Below are positions 20,251 through 44,840 of a stretch of 64,000 nucleotides of DNA, piece by piece. Location: the NCBI RefSeq assembly GCF_013315695.1, contig NZ_CP054353.1, one strand, 5' to 3'. This DNA is from Escherichia coli. Its GTDB lineage: Bacteria > Pseudomonadota > Gammaproteobacteria > Enterobacterales > Enterobacteriaceae. A program made the translations under genes and the position numbers. The notes under the pieces are model-generated. The model was not told the DNA's origin, did not search any database, and saw nothing but the letters and a program-made list of their open reading frames with translations. Each line of letters starts with the position of its first letter. Within the stretch, counting starts at the first letter, position 1.

Positions 20251-20548
20251 ATTTACTACTTTCAGGCCTAACACCACGGCCTGTGCAACATCGTGTTCCA
20301 ACGAACGAATTATAACCATCGGTGGACCCCGTTGCAATTAAGATAATGAGATTTATAATCCTGACTGTTGGGAGGTTGCGCCGGATCGAACCCATTTCAA
20401 GTCCTGGCTACCGGACGGGTGGTGCCGCAGGTAGTGCCCTGATCCGGAGTGCAACATCGTGGTCCAACATACGTAAACCAGTATCGACAGGCAGGTGATG
20501 CTGCCAACTTACTGATTTAGTGTATGATGGTGTTTTTGAGGTGCTCCA

Positions 20549-20824
20549 GTGGCTTCTGTTTCTATCAGCTGTCCCTCCTGTTCAGCTACTGACGGGGTGG
20601 TGCGTAACGGCAAAAGCACCGCCGGACATCAGCGCTATCTCTGCTCTCACTGCCGTAAAACATGGCAACTGCAGTTCACTTACACCGCTTCTCAACCCGG
20701 TACGCACCAGAAAATCATTGATATGGCCATGAATGGCGTTGGATGCCGGGCAACAGCCCGCATTATGGGCGTTGGCCTCAACACGATTTTACGTCACTTA
20801 AAAAACTCAGGCCGCAGTCGGTAA
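20549..20824 (+). CDS. insA: IS1 InsA
   Basis: 91-aa ORF inside IS1 copy A. Confidence 0.9.
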
Positions 20825-21246
20825 CCTCGCGCATACAGCCGGGCAGTGACGTCATCGTCTGCGCGGAAATGGACGAACAGTGGGGCTATGTCGGGGCTAA
20901 ATCGCGCCAGCGCTGGCTGTTTTACGCGTATGACAGGCTCCGGAAGACGGTTGTTGCGCACGTATTCGGTGAACGCACTATGGCGACGCTGGGGCGTCTT
21001 ATGAGCCTGCTGTCACCCTTTGACGTGGTGATATGGATGACGGATGGCTGGCCGCTGTATGAATCCCGCCTGAAGGGAAAGCTGCACGTAATCAGCAAGC
21101 GATATACGCAGCGAATTGAGCGGCATAACCTGAATCTGAGGCAGCACCTGGCACGGCTGGGACGGAAGTCGCTGTCGTTCTCAAAATCGGTGGAGCTGCA
21201 TGACAAAGTCATCGGGCATTATCTGAACATAAAACACTATCAATAA
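20743..21246 (+). CDS. insB: IS1 InsB (expressed as InsAB' fusion by frameshifting)
   Basis: 167-aa ORF overlapping insA inside IS1 copy A. Confidence 0.9.
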
Positions 21247-21256
21247 GTTGGAGTCA

Positions 21257-21967
21257 TTACCCAGTAGCATATTCCAGACCGCCTTCCTGAATAATCTGAT
21301 CCATAACATCCTCACGCTCTTTATATCTCGTGCAGTGCAGTTCAAGTGCCGCGAGTACAGCCATTACCGGTGATGGTAATTTTGTCGTTTTCGGGCTGTT
21401 AATCAGATCGATCGCCTGAGCGATGAAGTTTTGCCACTCTAAAGTACAGGCGCTGAAGTCAAATGTAGCTGTTTTGTTATCCCGTTGCGACACGCCACAG
21501 GCTAAGCGACGTAACTGGGTTAATTTATCTACAGGTGTAACAGGATCTCCGGGAAAGCGGCGATGGCTTAAGGTGGTGGGTACGACTTCAAGCGGAAAAA
21601 CGACAGCAATATCTTTTGCCAGCCACGGTAAAATAACGTCTGTATTTTTGTCAGCCACGTAGATTTCTGGTGTAACTGAGGGCTGTTCCTGAATGATGGT
21701 AGAAAAGTCAGATAATTCGAGAGTTTTCGTTACCGTTCGAGTATGTTTCGATGTAGCATTCTCCGCTTGTTCCACATACCCCTTTTTCGTTTTCTCCGCA
21801 ATCAGCTTGAGTTCCGCTTTTTCCGCCGCCGCAGCATCTGCAAAGCTTTTTACCTGACTTTGCCCGTTGGTGCCGACTTTGCCCCAACTGATATTCAGTT
21901 CGTTTCCCTGCTGCTCCACCGCCCAGAATTTATGTGATTTTTCGTCCTGATAAATATAGGTTTTCAT
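21257..21967 (-). pseudogene. yehI: yehI-like WGR-domain protein, N-terminal 235 codons only, truncated by IS1 copy A
   Basis: ORF begins MKTYIYQDEKSHKFWAV (WGR) and its stop codon lies inside the IS1 terminus. Confidence 0.65.
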
Positions 21968-31148: not shown

Positions 31149-31203
31149 GGTGATGCTGCCAACTTACTGATTTAGTGTATGATGGTGTTTTTGAGGTGCT
31201 CCA

Positions 31204-31479
31204 GTGGCTTCTGTTTCTATCAGCTGTCCCTCCTGTTCAGCTACTGACGGGGTGGTGCGTAACGGCAAAAGCACCGCCGGACATCAGCGCTATCTCTGCT
31301 CTCACTGCCGTAAAACATGGCAACTGCAGTTCACTTACACCGCTTCTCAACCCGGTACGCACCAGAAAATCATTGATATGGCCATGAATGGCGTTGGATG
31401 CCGGGCAACAGCCCGCATTATGGGCGTTGGCCTCAACACGATTTTACGTCACTTAAAAAACTCAGGCCGCAGTCGGTAA
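31204..31479 (+). CDS. insA: IS1 InsA
   Basis: Identical to the other copies. Confidence 0.9.
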
Positions 31480-31901
31480 CCTCGCGCATACAGCCGGGCA
31501 GTGACGTCATCGTCTGCGCGGAAATGGACGAACAGTGGGGCTATGTCGGGGCTAAATCGCGCCAGCGCTGGCTGTTTTACGCGTATGACAGGCTCCGGAA
31601 GACGGTTGTTGCGCACGTATTCGGTGAACGCACTATGGCGACGCTGGGGCGTCTTATGAGCCTGCTGTCACCCTTTGACGTGGTGATATGGATGACGGAT
31701 GGCTGGCCGCTGTATGAATCCCGCCTGAAGGGAAAGCTGCACGTAATCAGCAAGCGATATACGCAGCGAATTGAGCGGCATAACCTGAATCTGAGGCAGC
31801 ACCTGGCACGGCTGGGACGGAAGTCGCTGTCGTTCTCAAAATCGGTGGAGCTGCATGACAAAGTCATCGGGCATTATCTGAACATAAAACACTATCAATA
31901 A
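31398..31901 (+). CDS. insB: IS1 InsB
   Basis: Identical to the other copies. Confidence 0.9.
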
Positions 31902-31967
31902 GTTGGAGTCATTACCTAAATAGGCTTGATGAAAGTTCTATTTCTATATTTTTCAATATACAAATTT

Positions 31968-35151: not shown

Positions 35152-35898
35152 ATGGAACAAGCGCATACCCAGCTGATTGCCCAACTGAACGAACGTATTT
35201 TAGCGGCGGATAACACGCCGCTTTATATTAAGTTTGCCGAAACGGTAAAAAATGCCGTGCGCAGCGGGGTGCTGGAGCATGGCAATATTTTGCCCGGTGA
35301 GCGTGATTTAAGTCAGTTAACCGGCGTTTCGCGCATTACGGTGCGCAAGGCGATGCAGGCGCTGGAAGAAGAGGGCGTGGTGACGCGTTCGCGTGGTTAC
35401 GGCACGCAGATCAACAACATCTTCGAATACTCGCTGAAAGAAGCGCGGGGGTTTTCTCAGCAGGTGGTATTGCGCGGGAAAAAGCCCGATACGCTATGGG
35501 TTAACAAGCGTGTCGTGAAATGTCCCGAAGAAGTCGCGCAACAGCTGGCGGTCGAAGCGGGAAGTGATGTCTTTTTGCTTAAGCGTATTCGCTATGTCGA
35601 TGAAGAGGCGGTATCGATTGAGGAATCGTGGGTTCCGGCGCATTTAATTCATGATGTTGATGCCATCGGAATTTCTCTTTATGACTACTTCCGCAGCCAG
35701 CACATTTACCCACAACGTACGCGTTCCCGCGTTAGCGCCCGGATGCCGGATGCCGAGTTTCAGTCACATATTCAGTTAGATAGCAAAATACCGGTGCTGG
35801 TGATCAAGCAAGTGGCGCTTGACCAACAGCAACGGCCTATTGAGTACAGCATCAGCTACTGTCGCAGCGATCTATACGTTTTTGTGTGCGAGGAGTAG
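35152..35898 (+). CDS. yegW: GntR-family transcriptional regulator YegW
   Basis: 248-aa ORF; N-terminal winged HTH, C-terminal effector domain. Confidence 0.85.
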   Translation: MEQAHTQLIAQLNERILAADNTPLYIKFAETVKNAVRSGVLEHGNILPGERDLSQLTGVSRITVRKAMQALEEEGVVTRSRGYGTQINNIFEYSLKEARGFSQQVVLRGKKPDTLWVNKRVVKCPEEVAQQLAVEAGSDVFLLKRIRYVDEEAVSIEESWVPAHLIHDVDAIGISLYDYFRSQHIYPQRTRSRVSARMPDAEFQSHIQLDSKIPVLVIKQVALDQQQRPIEYSISYCRSDLYVFVCEE

Positions 35899-36837: not shown

Positions 36838-37838
36838 ATCGCCTCCCGTTGTTGGCGATACTTCGCCAGCGCCGTGGCATAGCGGTTGAAATCAAGCTGA
36901 TTTACTGCATCCAGTTCCGCCTTTAACGCAGGATCGATAGCGTTAACGCCATGCAACGCGCCGCAAATTGCCGTCGCCATAGCACCGATGGTGTCTGTGT
37001 CGCCGCCAAGGTTAGCGCACAGGACGGCGCAACGGTTCGGGTCGGTTTGTGCCAGTTCAACCAGCGCAATGGCGCACGGAACGGACTCAATAGTGCTGGT
37101 ACCTGCGCCAACGACCTGGTAAAGCTGTTCGCTGGCGGATTCGGTGCCATCGGCATTGCGCACAATTTTCAGCGCAATCTCCAGACGTGCTGCCAGTGAG
37201 GCGCTGAAGGTAGTGATGCGTTTTTGTTGAGCATGTCGCGCAATTGAAGGCAGTGAATCAACAATCGCTGACCAGCTTTCTCCGTCAATGGCACGAGAAA
37301 TCGCCCATGCGATGACTACCGCCCCCGCAACCGCCAGATCGGATTTATGTGTCGGGCTGGAGGCCAGCGCCACATCATCAATAAAAGAGTCAATATCGCG
37401 CGCCGGAAGCAAACAACCTAATGGCGAGACGCGCATCGCTGCGCCGTTGGTCACGCCGTTATTTTCCAGTTCAGCAACGGGTTTACCGTCGCGAATGGCG
37501 TTAAGCGCAATCTTCGAGGTCGGACCTAGTACGTTTTTGTTAAAGGCGTCGAAACGCAGCGCCCAGTCGAGAATATTACGCCCAATCAGATCCGGATCGA
37601 TCTTGCCTTCACGTTCCAGTAACGCATCCGCCAGACACAGCGCCATCGAGGTATCGTCGGTGAATTCGGCGCGGTTAAAATAACAGGCTGCGTTATTCTC
37701 CTTTGGCCCAGGCAGAAAACGGTCAATCCAGCCAAAGTGTGCTTTGACGCGACTGCGCGGCCAAAGCTCGGAGGGCATCCCCATCGCATCCCCTAACGCC
37801 TGCCCATAAAGAGCACCGAGAATACGTTCTGTTTTCAT
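36834..37838 (-). CDS. yegU: ADP-ribosylglycohydrolase-family protein YegU
   Basis: 334-aa ORF; 4-nt overlap with yegV. Confidence 0.85.
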   Translation of the reverse strand: MKTERILGALYGQALGDAMGMPSELWPRSRVKAHFGWIDRFLPGPKENNAACYFNRAEFTDDTSMALCLADALLEREGKIDPDLIGRNILDWALRFDAFNKNVLGPTSKIALNAIRDGKPVAELENNGVTNGAAMRVSPLGCLLPARDIDSFIDDVALASSPTHKSDLAVAGAVVIAWAISRAIDGESWSAIVDSLPSIARHAQQKRITTFSASLAARLEIALKIVRNADGTESASEQLYQVVGAGTSTIESVPCAIALVELAQTDPNRCAVLCANLGGDTDTIGAMATAICGALHGVNAIDPALKAELDAVNQLDFNRYATALAKYRQQREAI

Positions 37839-39112
37839 TTAACTTCCCCTTGTGTCAACGCAATATCGCGATCATCGACCTTGATAGCCGTAATTTCGTT
37901 GTCGGATTCGCGGAAAAAAATCATGAACAGCACGGCGATAATGGCAATCATCACCGCGCCGAAAGTCCACATCCCGGCCCAGTTGAAAGTCAGTCCGTTT
38001 ACCGGTTCCTGATAAGCGAACATCTTTTCCATCATCACACCGCCAAGACGATAGCCGAGCAAACTGCCGAAGCCCTGGCAGCAGAGCGTGATCAGCCCCT
38101 GCGCGGCGGTACGCATATGCACGGGAGCTTTTTTATCGACATAGATGTAAGCGGTAACGTAGTAAAAATCGTAACTTACGCCGTGCAGCAAAATACCGAG
38201 GAACAGTAACGCGTAGGTGAAATATTCATCCGCACTACCGTAAATAAAGAAGCCATAGCGGATCGCAGCGGTGACCAGACCAAGTAATAATACCTTTTTG
38301 ATACCAAAGCGTTTGGTAAAAAACGGTAATGCCAGCATAAAGAAGATTTCAGAGAACTGGCCGAGCGTCATCCAGCCAGTGGCGTTTTTCATGCCAACTT
38401 CGGTCAGATAACCGTTGGCAAAGATGTAATAGAACGCCAGTGGCATCGCAAACAGGAATGAACAGAAGAAAAAGACGAGGAAGTTCTTATCGCGCAGCAG
38501 GATCAGCGCATCCAGGCCGAGCATGACTTTAATATCCATTTTGCCGGTGCTTTTTGGTGGCGTGTCGGGCAGGAAAAACGCAAACACACCAAGCAGAGCA
38601 GAACTTCCGGCGGTAATCAGCAGCGGGATGTTCGTCGGTGAGATATCGGCATAACCCAGCATTTGCGGCAAGAATCCACATGCCAGACCAGAGGCAATCC
38701 AGCCGATAGTGCCCATCACACGAATGCGCGGGAAATCACGCTCCACATCCGGCACGTTGGCAAAAGCGATACTGTTAGTCAGCGCAATGGTCGGCATATA
38801 GGTTAGCGAGTAGGCCAGCAGTAACGGGAAGAAGCCGGCAAAAGTGGTCTGTTGCGCAGCGAAATACATCAGCACCGCACCAGCGAACATCAATACCGCC
38901 AGCACTTTCTGTGCCGAGAAAAAGCGGTCAGTGATGGAGCCAACCAGAATCGGCGACAGGATCGCCGCAATGGCGGTACAGGCATACGACCAGCCAATTT
39001 CTCCGGCACTAAAACCGCTTTTACTTAACCACAACCACAATGGCACAAACCACGCGCCCCAGATAAACCATTCAACAAACATCATGAACGACAGCTTTGC
39101 TGTTGTTTTCAT
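37835..39112 (-). CDS. yegT: MFS nucleoside transporter YegT
   Basis: 425-aa polytopic membrane ORF; overlaps yegU start. Confidence 0.85.
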   Translation of the reverse strand: MKTTAKLSFMMFVEWFIWGAWFVPLWLWLSKSGFSAGEIGWSYACTAIAAILSPILVGSITDRFFSAQKVLAVLMFAGAVLMYFAAQQTTFAGFFPLLLAYSLTYMPTIALTNSIAFANVPDVERDFPRIRVMGTIGWIASGLACGFLPQMLGYADISPTNIPLLITAGSSALLGVFAFFLPDTPPKSTGKMDIKVMLGLDALILLRDKNFLVFFFCSFLFAMPLAFYYIFANGYLTEVGMKNATGWMTLGQFSEIFFMLALPFFTKRFGIKKVLLLGLVTAAIRYGFFIYGSADEYFTYALLFLGILLHGVSYDFYYVTAYIYVDKKAPVHMRTAAQGLITLCCQGFGSLLGYRLGGVMMEKMFAYQEPVNGLTFNWAGMWTFGAVMIAIIAVLFMIFFRESDNEITAIKVDDRDIALTQGEVK

Positions 39113-39170
39113 CTTTTAATTCCTTCATGACAGGTAATGTAAGGTACGCGATGACGGTAATGACTCCAAC

Positions 39171-39674
39171 TTATTGATAGTGTTTTATGTTCAGATAATG
39201 CCCGATGACTTTGTCATGCAGCTCCACCGATTTTGAGAACGACAGCGACTTCCGTCCCAGCCGTGCCAGGTGCTGCCTCAGATTCAGGTTATGCCGCTCA
39301 ATTCGCTGCGTATATCGCTTGCTGATTACGTGCAGCTTTCCCTTCAGGCGGGATTCATACAGCGGCCAGCCATCCGTCATCCATATCACCACGTCAAAGG
39401 GTGACAGCAGGCTCATAAGACGCCCCAGCGTCGCCATAGTGCGTTCACCGAATACGTGCGCAACAACCGTCTTCCGGAGCCTGTCATACGCGTAAAACAG
39501 CCAGCGCTGGCGCGATTTAGCCCCGACATAGCCCCACTGTTCGTCCATTTCCGCGCAGACGATGACGTCACTGCCCGGCTGTATGCGCGAGGTTACCGAC
39601 TGCGGCCTGAGTTTTTTAAGTGACGTAAAATCGTGTTGAGGCCAACGCCCATAATGCGGGCTGTTGCCCGGCAT
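39171..39674 (-). CDS. insB: IS1 InsB
   Basis: Identical to the other copies. Confidence 0.9.
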
Positions 39675-39868
39675 CCAACGCCATTCATGGCCATATCAAT
39701 GATTTTCTGGTGCGTACCGGGTTGAGAAGCGGTGTAAGTGAACTGCAGTTGCCATGTTTTACGGCAGTGAGAGCAGAGATAGCGCTGATGTCCGGCGGTG
39801 CTTTTGCCGTTACGCACCACCCCGTCAGTAGCTGAACAGGAGGGACAGCTGATAGAAACAGAAGCCAC
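39593..39868 (-). CDS. insA: IS1 InsA
   Basis: Identical to the other copies. Confidence 0.9.
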
Positions 39869-40145
39869 TGGAGCACCTCAAAAACACCATCATACACTAA
39901 ATCAGTAAGTTGGCAGCATCACCCGCGATGACAATACCACTTAATAATACCTTTTAAATACCTTTGCGGTGAAAACTTGACCGCTGTAACATTTTTTCTG
40001 ATGAATCGAGCCAACAGAAAACGCTGAAAAAACATCCAAAAGATGGAAAAACTCGCCCGTAACGACCAGGATTATGATTGCCCGCAAAAGGCGGGCCAGG
40101 ACAATCCATAGCCGATATCCAATCGGAATTTACGGGAGCATAGTA

Positions 40146-41198
40146 ATGACAGATATTGCGCAGTTGCTTGGCAAAGACGCCGACAACCTTTTACAGCACC
40201 GTTGTATGACTATTCCTTCTGACCAGCTTTATCTCCCCGGACATGACTACGTAGACCGCGTGATGATTGACAATAATCGCCCGCCAGCGGTGTTACGTAA
40301 TATGCAGACGTTGTACAACACCGGGCGTCTGGCTGGCACAGGATATCTTTCTATTCTGCCGGTTGACCAGGGCGTTGAGCACTCTGCCGGAGCTTCATTT
40401 GCCGCTAACCCGCTCTACTTTGACCCGAAAAACATTGTTGAACTGGCGATCGAAGCGGGCTGTAACTGCGTGGCGTCAACTTACGGCGTGCTGGCATCGG
40501 TATCTCGGCGTTACGCGCATCGCATTCCATTCCTCGTCAAACTTAATCACAACGAGACGCTAAGTTACCCGAATACCTACGATCAAACGCTGTATGCCAG
40601 CGTGGAGCAGGCGTTCAATATGGGCGCGGTGGCGGTTGGGGCGACTATCTATTTTGGCTCGGAAGAGTCACGTCGCCAGATTGAAGAAATTTCTGCGGCT
40701 TTTGAACGTGCGCACGAGCTGGGCATGGTGACAGTGCTGTGGGCCTATTTGCGTAACTCCGCCTTTAAGAAAGATGGCGTTGATTACCATGTTTCCGCCG
40801 ACCTGACTGGTCAGGCGAACCATCTGGCGGCAACCATAGGTGCAGATATCGTCAAACAAAAAATGGCGGAAAATAACGGCGGCTATAAAGCGATTAATTA
40901 CGGTTATACCGACGATCGTGTTTACAGCAAATTGACCAGCGAAAACCCGATTGATCTGGTGCGTTATCAGTTAGCTAACTGCTATATGGGCCGGGCTGGG
41001 TTGATAAACTCCGGCGGTGCTGCGGGCGGTGAAACTGACCTCAGCGATGCAGTGCGTACTGCGGTTATCAACAAACGCGCTGGCGGAATGGGGCTGATTC
41101 TTGGACGTAAGGCGTTCAAGAAATCGATGGCTGACGGCGTGAAACTGATTAACGCCGTGCAGGACGTTTATCTCGATAGCAAAATTACTATCGCCTGA
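40146..41198 (+). CDS. fbaB: Fructose-bisphosphate aldolase class I
   Basis: ORF 40074..41198; start [18 protein letters not shown]; 350 aa. Confidence 0.9.
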
Positions 41199-43571: not shown

Positions 43572-43854
43572 GGACGGTATATGACTAACCTGTTTGTTCG
43601 TAGCGGAATTTCTTTTGTCGATCGTAGCGAAGTTTTAGCCCATATCGGTAATGAGATGCTCGCGAAAGGTGTGGTTCATGATACCTGGCCACAGGCATTA
43701 ATTGCCAGAGAAGCAGAATTCCCTACCGGGATAATGCTTGAGCAGCACGCCATTGCAATACCGCATTGTGAGGCGATTCATGCTAAGTCGTCAGCCATTG
43801 GTGATGCTGCCAACTTACTGATTTAGTGTATGATGGTGTTTTTGAGGTGCTCCA

Positions 43855-44130
43855 GTGGCTTCTGTTTCTATCAGCTGTCCCTCCTGTTCAGCTACTGACG
43901 GGGTGGTGCGTAACGGCAAAAGCACCGCCGGACATCAGCGCTATCTCTGCTCTCACTGCCGTAAAACATGGCAACTGCAGTTCACTTACACCGCTTCTCA
44001 ACCCGGTACGCACCAGAAAATCATTGATATGGCCATGAATGGCGTTGGATGCCGGGCAACAGCCCGCATTATGGGCGTTGGCCTCAACACGATTTTACGT
44101 CACTTAAAAAACTCAGGCCGCAGTCGGTAA
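43855..44130 (+). CDS. insA: IS1 InsA
   Basis: Identical to the other copies. Confidence 0.9.
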
Positions 44131-44552
44131 CCTCGCGCATACAGCCGGGCAGTGACGTCATCGTCTGCGCGGAAATGGACGAACAGTGGGGCTATGTCGG
44201 GGCTAAATCGCGCCAGCGCTGGCTGTTTTACGCGTATGACAGGCTCCGGAAGACGGTTGTTGCGCACGTATTCGGTGAACGCACTATGGCGACGCTGGGG
44301 CGTCTTATGAGCCTGCTGTCACCCTTTGACGTGGTGATATGGATGACGGATGGCTGGCCGCTGTATGAATCCCGCCTGAAGGGAAAGCTGCACGTAATCA
44401 GCAAGCGATATACGCAGCGAATTGAGCGGCATAACCTGAATCTGAGGCAGCACCTGGCACGGCTGGGACGGAAGTCGCTGTCGTTCTCAAAATCGGTGGA
44501 GCTGCATGACAAAGTCATCGGGCATTATCTGAACATAAAACACTATCAATAA
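44049..44552 (+). CDS. insB: IS1 InsB
   Basis: Identical to the other copies. Confidence 0.9.
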
Positions 44553-44840
44553 GTTGGAGTCATTACCTCAGCCATTTATCTGTTAAGGCCAACAAATAAA
44601 GTTCATTTTCAGCAAGCGGATGATGATAACGACGTGGCGGTATCGTTGGTTATTGCGTTGATTGTGGAAAATCCGCAGCAGCAATTGAAACTTTTACGCT
44701 GTTTATTTGGCAAGTTACAACAGCCCGATATCGTCGAGACACTAATTACTCTTCCTGAAACTCAGTTAAAGGAATACTTCACAAAGTATGTTTTAGATTC
44801 AGACGAATAAATCCCTCTGTAACAATAAAAAGGACTGTTT

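Follow-up and report, generated by a model that had tools for sequence, protein, structure and literature searches.

The classical gal and lac IS1 mutants carry the element as a polar insertion between the promoter/operator and the first gene, and the strong polarity of IS1 is classical knowledge. Other insertions form hybrid promoters, as described for bla TEM-1, acrEF and afaA of ST131, where IS1 lies tens of base pairs upstream of the start and presents an outward-facing -35-like hexamer (PMC8764528, PMC9330008). IS1 activates its neighbours only with a correctly spaced -10, which decides whether expression is raised, lowered or unchanged; it is lowered or unchanged for the insertions at osmB and ugd (PMC8764528).

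The regulator GgaR (YegW) acts on one target in the genome. It was shown to bind DNA probes of the 190 bp preceding yegT and, less strongly, of the yegT reading frame (571-869), and it represses yegTUV about 30-fold, while fbaB is unaffected (PMC10819704). Northern blots detect yegTUV only after deletion of ggaR, the wild type giving no signal, and the operator was left undefined, with no footprint (PMC10819704). Loss of ggaR makes growth in minimal glucose slower (PMC10819704).

In the window, that is, the whole stretch of 64 kb of Escherichia coli DNA that was analysed, an IS1 element, referred to here as copy C, is located in the spacer between yegT and fbaB. Both the element and the mechanism are already known, and RefSeq genomes already contain the filled allele, with annotation, as a routine IS1 polymorphism; the finding is real but ordinary. 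Like the classical polar leader insertions, copy C separates the first cistron from the control region, and transcription must cross the element. Unlike them, its sense-strand composition is atypical of a Rho loading site, and polarity at this locus would be expected by analogy. With the hybrid promoters it shares the distance of tens of base pairs from a start and the outward -35-like hexamer, but it lacks a -10 at the required spacing at either junction, and it is therefore closer to the osmB and ugd insertions than to that of afaA (PMC8764528). The K-12 GgaR-yegTUV regulon (PMC10819704) has the same intact genes, and the sampled genomes of K-12 size match a 400-bp tile of the spacer at 99.5% identity; unlike in K-12, the spacer site and the promoter are 777 bp further from yegT. 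The comparison, made on sequence, suggests that a simple IS1A insertion has probably uncoupled yegTUV from its promoter and operator and blunted its induction, leaving fbaB unchanged, at a site that appears to be a hot spot.

The insertion and its surroundings

The gene yegT (37835..39112, minus strand) encodes an intact nucleoside:H+ symporter of 425 aa (Pfam Nuc_H_symport), and fbaB (40146..41198, plus strand) a class I aldolase of 350 aa (Pfam DeoC/LacD aldolase). The two are transcribed divergently, with the ATG of yegT at 39112 (minus) and that of fbaB at 40146. Downstream of yegT are yegU and yegV, followed by the convergent yegW (ggaR) at 35152-35898. All four reading frames, yegT (425 aa), yegU (334 aa), yegV (321 aa) and yegW (248 aa), are intact in the window, and their lengths equal those annotated in relatives.

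Copy C is a 768-bp IS1 of the IS1A type on the minus strand (39156-39923), the ends of which were located by a search with the IS1 terminal sequences. Position 39156 is the tip of IRR (GGTAATGACTCC...) and position 39923 that of IRL (reverse complement of GGTGATGCTGCC...). The inverted repeats IRR (GGTAATGACTCCAACTTATTGAT, 39156..39178, plus strand) and IRL (GGTGATGCTGCCAACTTACTGAT, 39901..39923, minus strand) match at 18 of 23 positions. The element is co-oriented with yegT, so that IRL faces fbaB and the promoter side of yegT, and IRR faces yegT itself. Its position is off-centre, 34 bp from the ATG of yegT and 213 bp from that of fbaB.

Between 39140 and 39935 the junctions read ...AAGGTA CGCGATGAC / GGTAATGACTCCAAC ... 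GTTGGCAGCATCACC / CGCGATGAC AATACC.... The 9-mer CGCGATGAC occurs exactly twice in the 64 kb, as the left (39147..39155) and right (39924..39932) copies of a target-site duplication with no strand assigned, each abutting one end of IS1. The chance identity of two given flanking 9-mers is 4^-9, or about 4e-6. Copy C is thus one simple transposition of an intact IS1A into the 9-bp target CGCGATGAC of the fbaB/yegT spacer. A simple insertion with an intact 9-bp duplication had been the original reading, and it is borne out by the presence of CGCGATGAC at both ends and of a single CGCGATGAC in empty alleles; the divergent flanking genes and the coordinates of the element had also been given exactly. 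An origin of copy C by IS1-mediated rearrangement, either adjacent deletion or recombination between two elements, is rejected, since its flanking 9-mers match.

In comparison with the IS1A of K-12 strain MG1655, copy C is identical at 767 of 768 positions, with one difference, and it shares the length of 768 bp, the inverted repeats matching at 18 of 23 positions, insA and insB', the A6C motif and the 9-bp duplication. It differs in location only, K-12 having no IS1 between fbaB and yegT. The insA gene (39593..39868, minus strand) encodes 91 aa with the Pfam domains Zn_ribbon_InsA (1.3e-21) and HTH_Tnp_IS1 (4.7e-31). The overlapping insB' reading frame (39171..39674, minus strand; 167 aa) matches DDE_Tnp_IS1 (2.3e-78), and all three domain matches greatly exceed the threshold. 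The A6C motif for -1 frameshifting, TTAAAAAACTC (39609..39619, minus strand), is located in the insA/insB' overlap at IS position 305, and copy C is labelled 'programmed frameshift' by RefSeq in relatives. The promoter-like sequence CTGCCA-16-TATGAT (39889..39916, minus strand) is partly inside IRL, reads into insA and then towards yegT, and is taken here to be the IS1 insA promoter (pIRL). This promoter is weak and is repressed by InsA. With all tested defining features present, copy C is a standard, apparently functional IS1A, its transposition activity being only implied by the intact reading frames and by the four identical copies in the window.

In the window either terminal sequence of IS1 is matched four times, which defines four copies, each of 768 bp and 100% identical to one another. 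Three of them had been named earlier, as A to C; the total is now corrected to four. Copies A (20494-21261) and B (31149-31916), both on the plus strand, have different 9-mers at their two ends, and no pairing of their ends yields a match, which confirms the contrast drawn earlier between them and copy C. At copy B, the left flank is that of one IS1 in the relative MSB1_4I and the right flank that of another. The fourth element, copy D (43800-44567, plus strand), is flanked by the 9-bp duplication TCAGCCATT. Together with the at least 40 places occupied by IS1 in relatives of the window, the four identical copies indicate a recent expansion of IS1 in this lineage.

Empty and filled alleles

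The empty site was reconstructed from 200 bp of the left flank, including one 9-mer, and 200 bp of the right flank. Of 5426 complete E. coli genomes, a set that does not include the window's own genome, 5413 contain this site without interruption. In SMS-3-5 the empty site is 100% identical and aligns with a single CGCGATGAC, and the flank in B1.H1.18 likewise contains CGCGATGAC once. Three genomes, those of AF3, MSB1_4I and A30, contain the filled left junction at 100% identity, and a related IS1 junction near yegT is present in B1.H1.18 and B1.H1.1, so that only five of the 5426 genomes carry such leader alleles. None of the 5426 has an IS1 of opposite orientation near the start of yegT. An exact-pattern scan in which the yegT leader and IRR could be 0-30 nt apart found no match in 100,044 species-representative genomes or in metagenome contigs; IS junctions seldom assemble in metagenomes.

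Over 28 kb, AF3 and MSB1_4I share 99.9% identity with the window, and they have copies C and D with matching duplications, which places both in the lineage of the window. The yegT gene of AF3 contains an internal stop codon, which fits relaxed constraint after the insertion.

The allele of the horse isolate A30 has an identical junction on the yegT side, while its IRL adjoins the interior of gatR, and fbaB and gatYZABCD are deleted at the locus. The flanks of A30 and of the window differ by 154 substitutions in 6.1 kb (2.3%), the nearest being 177 bp from the junction. The A30 element at yegT carries T486G, in common with four other sampled IS1 copies of A30, while position 486 is a T in every copy of the window lineage. 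These sequences are most economically explained by a separate transposition event that hit the same 9 bp and left IS1 in the same orientation. Import of the A30 allele by recombination from the window lineage is disfavoured by the divergence of the flanks 177 bp out and by the A30-wide occurrence of T486G. B1.H1.18 contains another IS1 variant, with six differences, inserted in the same orientation 21 bp nearer to yegT and flanked by its own duplication, CATGACAGG; B1.H1.1 also has a different variant at this offset.

By sequence, IS1 would thus have entered the yegT leader at least three times independently, twice at the identical 9 bp and once 21 bp away, always co-oriented with yegT. A 400-bp tile across the site is non-contiguous in 9 of 5422 genomes, compared with 1 of 5422 for a tile in the yegT reading frame and 1 of 5423 for one in yegU; five of the nine are probably the IS1 alleles of AF3, MSB1_4I, A30, B1.H1.18 and B1.H1.1. 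As a counterpoint, the intact yegT, yegU, yegV and yegW and the rarity of disruptions in the yegT and yegU reading frames across the species fit poorly with a full silencing that is repeatedly tolerated.

The recurrence suggests that the yegT leader is a natural hot spot for IS1 or, less likely, that it is under selection. The common orientation proves nothing on its own, since three co-oriented events are expected by chance with p = 0.25. The A+T content within ±30 bp of the site is 65%, compared with 48% for the window, and fits the preference of IS1 for A+T-rich regions. Homology to the ends of IS1 is rejected as a cause of the hot spot, the 40-nt IRL and IRR sequences scoring 17 in local alignment with the empty spacer, where shuffled sequences give a null of 15.8 ± 2.2 (p = 0.30). 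Leftover similarities are the 7-mer GGTAATG and the pentamer ATGAC, which is common to both duplications. The pBR322 hot spot of IS1 is the source of the idea that an IHF site might be the determinant; here it is rejected, WATCARNNNNTTR having no match with at most one mismatch within ±200 bp.

The yegT control region and a candidate GgaR operator

The best sigma-70-like promoter for yegT is predicted at TTCACC-18-TATTAT (39944..39973, minus strand; 9 of 12 matches). It is located on the fbaB side of IS1 and is the only good sigma-70 match directed towards yegT, the other minus-strand match being in IRL. Neither a published transcription start for fbaB or yegT nor an exact Cra site was found in PMC2759082 and PMC5888115.

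The predicted -10 of this promoter is overlapped by a triple GGTAT repeat, GGTATTTAAAAGGTATTATTAAGTGGTATT in the sense of yegT (39933..39962, minus strand), which occupies positions -73 to -44 and is referred to here as candidate operator O1. A near-copy of this 30-mer, candidate operator O2, is found within yegT itself (38276..38305, minus strand; nt 808-837 of the reading frame). The two have an exact 14-mer in common, a match that none of 200 shuffles reached. O1 lies inside the 190-bp probe bound by GgaR and O2 inside the bound reading-frame probe 571-869.

The core of the motif was matched exactly in 34 species-representative genomes, and in 33 of them it is located next to a yegT homologue or inside one. 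The genera are Escherichia, Citrobacter, Salmonella, Enterobacter, Kluyvera, Raoultella, Yokenella, Trabulsiella, Pectobacterium, Providencia and one Vibrio. The motif is positioned either -67 to -85 from the ATG or at nt 808 of the reading frame, with the copies 874-880 bp apart. In an alignment of the upstream regions of 20 species, the block CAAAGGTATTTAAAAGGTATTATTAAnTGGTAT is nearly invariant between variable flanks; the other conserved blocks are a GTACC...TTACCTGTCATGAAGGA leader, a TGTTA-N6-TCAAG box and a CTGGCACGATTCA box. The GGTAT repeat is thus a candidate for the operator of GgaR on the basis of sequence and position. With IS1 in place, the two motif copies are about 1657 bp apart, compared with about 880 bp otherwise.

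Further elements are found on the fbaB side of the insertion. The TGTTA-N6-TCAAG box (39975..39990, minus strand) is CRP-like, and it is the putative counterpart of the CRP site detected in the fbaB/yegT spacer by genomic SELEX, CRP being a repressor of fbaB (PMC3105977). The site listed for sigma-54 at yegT, 183 nt upstream (PMC4591121), is represented by the motif CTGGCCCGCCTTTTGCG (40083..40099, minus strand), oriented towards yegT. The half-palindrome CTGATGAATCGAGCCAACAG (39997..40016, plus strand) belongs to a conserved block and is a putative Cra-like site, judged by the Cra consensus.

In the sense of yegT the 9-bp target is GTCATCGCG, at -43 to -35. It begins 1 bp downstream of the 30-bp triple GGTAT repeat and belongs to a variable stretch between the third GGTAT and the conserved GTACC. 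Consequently, the GgaR-bound region and the predicted promoter are no longer directly upstream of yegT, which is adjoined only by 34 bp of native spacer and the 9-bp duplicate. The remaining native leader (39113..39146, minus strand; 34 nt) contains the AAGGA Shine-Dalgarno sequence. With the exception of this leader and the intragenic copy of the motif, all known or conserved regulatory elements are on the fbaB side. It had been proposed that the insertion could separate regulatory sites from either promoter; this stands for yegT, from which the promoter and the GGTAT repeat are cut off, and fails for fbaB, with which the spacer elements stay contiguous.

The insertion might also be a neutral passenger, a preferred target hit during a transposition burst, with no measurable change in a yegTUV operon that is mostly silent. 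The four identical copies of the window, the at least 40 IS1 places in relatives, the local A+T content of 65% against 48%, the independent use of one 9-bp target twice and the rarity of the allele are consistent with such an origin. Yet few non-coding blocks of the locus are as well conserved across genera as the disrupted one, which is unlikely to be functionless, and a change in induced expression is expected when promoter and operator are moved 777 bp from the gene, so that a fully neutral insertion seems unlikely.

Transcription at the junctions and its consequences

Each end of IS1 contains an outward -35-like hexamer 8 nt from its tip, TTGGCA in IRL and TTGGAG in IRR. On the fbaB side, the flank has no -10 at a spacing of 16-18 bp from TTGGCA. 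It reads CAATAC, AATACC and ATACCA there, which are unusable as a -10 because none has a T at position 6. On the yegT side, the hexamers at 16-18 bp from TTGGAG are GTACCT, TACCTT and ACCTTA, again with no -10, the best reaching 6 of 12 matches. A strict promoter scan of the plus strand at the fbaB-side junction gave no site, and no internal outward IS1 promoter of at least 8 of 12 matches is present. The suggestion that IS1 supplies outward transcription is thus unsupported by the sequence, there being no -10 at the required spacing at either junction.

These observations bear on fbaB as the main target of the insertion, either through outward transcription from IRL or through the loss of needed upstream sequence. 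Hybrid promoters of IS1 are documented in PMC8764528 and in Prentki 1986 as cited in PMC9330008. The TTGGCA hexamer of IRL faces outward, and a relaxed scan gives a marginal ATCACC-19-AATAAT spanning the fbaB-side junction. However, the flank hexamers are unusable and the strict scan is empty, the whole 213 bp that precede fbaB, with the Cra-like and CRP-like boxes among them, are contiguous with the gene and only 34 bp of spacer were moved away, and fbaB is not regulated by GgaR (PMC10819704). Altogether an effect aimed at fbaB is very improbable. Since IS1 separates none of the conserved spacer elements from fbaB and creates no hybrid promoter, the regulation of this gene would be unchanged.

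For yegTUV, the preferred reading remains that of an operon uncoupled from its control region. The target would correspond to the first transcribed bases of the yegT leader, and the yegT promoter, the GGTAT operator and the CRP-like and sigma-54 sites would all be moved 777 bp away from yegT. The native promoter would fire and, a few nucleotides past the start, enter IRL and insA, while yegTUV would retain only the Shine-Dalgarno region and the weaker intragenic site. As IS1 is co-oriented with yegT, any yegT mRNA would have to be a read-through product from PyegT or from the IS1 promoter, crossing 768 bp that are largely untranslated and bound by InsA.

Read-through from inside IS1 towards yegT is possible as judged from the sequence. 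The sense strand from the stop codon of insB' to yegT has no predicted intrinsic terminator. Over the untranslated part of insB' the C/G ratio is about 0.7, a G-rich composition that does not predict a Rho loading site. This dissimilarity lowers the confidence in strong polarity, and much transcription could read through. Overall, yegTUV would have a compressed dynamic range, with the induction controlled by ADP-glucose and GgaR blunted or lost, and what remains would be a low constitutive read-through from the weak, InsA-repressed IS1 promoter.

The same read-through might instead have been selected, with IS1 giving yegTUV a GgaR-independent transcription, from the insA promoter or from PyegT, and turning a near-silent operon into one of constitutive low expression, with altered nucleoside uptake or glycogen accumulation. 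Such a view could draw on the three independent insertions within a 30-bp leader, all co-oriented with yegT, on a leader tile disrupted about nine times more often than the reading-frame tiles, and on the intact yegTUV and yegW in the window. The lack of a sense-strand terminator between insB' and yegT and the G-rich composition, not like that of a Rho site, are also compatible with it, and even weak read-through could be a gain, since wild-type yegTUV is undetectable unless ggaR is deleted (PMC10819704). Against this, there is no -10 at 16-18 bp from the TTGGAG of IRR and no internal outward promoter of at least 8 of 12 matches, the co-orientation has a chance probability of p = 0.25, the alleles occur in only 5 of 5426 genomes, and yegT has a stop codon in AF3. 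The insA promoter is moreover weak and repressed by InsA, and the relatives contain at least 40 copies of IS1. Derepression is not obviously beneficial either, as loss of ggaR slows growth in minimal glucose (PMC10819704). An adaptive rewiring is thus rather doubtful.

A more specific proposal is that the leader insertions are adaptive and orientation-specific, that they uncouple the glycogen-linked yegTUV from the ADP-glucose-sensing GgaR, and that this IS1 copy is itself metabolite-gated. This is less likely still. If true, the transposase genes of that copy would sit directly downstream of a GgaR-controlled promoter.

In the preferred reading, that of an uncoupled yegTUV operon, the locus would represent a naturally occurring allele whose single-target repressor system, GgaR-yegTUV, has been physically separated from its promoter, and MSB1_4I and AF3 would be ready-made tests of the purpose of yegTUV regulation. 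The 30-bp GGTAT-repeat motif is a concrete candidate for the undefined operator of GgaR. The recurrent hits in the yegT leader document what appears to be a chromosomal IS1 hot spot, which may be used for studying the target choice of IS1.

A candidate operator for GgaR and the yegT leader

A 30-bp triple GGTAT repeat occurs twice at the yegT locus, once upstream of the gene (39933-39962) and once inside it (38276-38305, at nucleotide 808 of the open reading frame). The motif is nearly unchanged in about 30 enterobacterial species (loci L009-L042, from species-representative genomes), and the spacing between its two copies is 874-880 bp across these loci. The repressor of yegTUV, GgaR (YegW), was shown to bind two regions at the yegT locus in a study which left the operator undefined (PMC10819704). 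Since the two copies of the repeat fall at both GgaR-bound regions of that study, the repeat is a candidate for the GgaR operator.

The yegT leaders of Escherichia contain around 6 additional nucleotides, GTACCTTACATTACC versus GTACCTTACC (window positions 39113-39146 compared with the alignment of yegT upstream regions), and one additional A ahead of the start codon. A conserved ATG further upstream, within GTCATGAAGGA, shares the reading frame of yegT in most other genera; in E. coli it lies in a different frame. Further towards fbaB, the reported sigma-54 motif directed towards yegT (40083-40099) overlaps a GC-rich hairpin, GCCCGCAAAAGGCGGGC, which would be located within the fbaB leader or immediately upstream of it.

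IS1 at the yegT junction in other E. coli strains

In E. coli A30, an IS1 is present at the same yegT junction (L001 6151-6926), and its IRL end is joined to the interior of gatR; fbaB and gatYZABCD are deleted. This loss looks like an IS1-mediated adjacent deletion. Another IS1 variant adjoins yegS in the same strain, ~1.3 kb away.

The yegT gene is intact in the window and in strain MSB1_4I, unlike in AF3, where the annotation lists the gene downstream of the same IS1 insertion (L003 18830-20107) as a pseudogene carrying an internal stop. The gatY gene of AF3 is frameshifted as well.

Deletion and gene interruption by the other IS1 copies

Copy B (31149-31916) has its left flank from one IS1 of MSB1_4I and its right flank from another (L004 6232-6999 and 12117-12884), so the window strain has lost the intervening 5.9 kb, comprising a yeh fimbrial remnant, rcnB, rcnA, rcnR, an integrase and an HNH gene, through IS1-IS1 recombination; this also explains why copy B has no duplication. 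In both relatives, two annotated TPP riboswitches upstream of thiM (L003 10568-13592 in AF3, L004 9791-13592 in MSB1_4I) flank genes for a tyrosine recombinase and an HNH endonuclease; this resembles a small integrated element whose insertion duplicated the targeted riboswitch.

Copy A (20494-21261) also has no duplication, its flanks being CGACAGGCA and CAGTAGCAT, and no partner for it was found among the other IS1 copies of the 64-kb window. An adjacent deletion presumably took place here, or else a rearrangement involving an IS1 copy beyond the window.

A fourth IS1, copy D (43800-44567), absent from the original prediction, has an intact duplication, TCAGCCATT. As copy D interrupts gatA, the galactitol PTS operon next to fbaB is probably inactive in the window strain.
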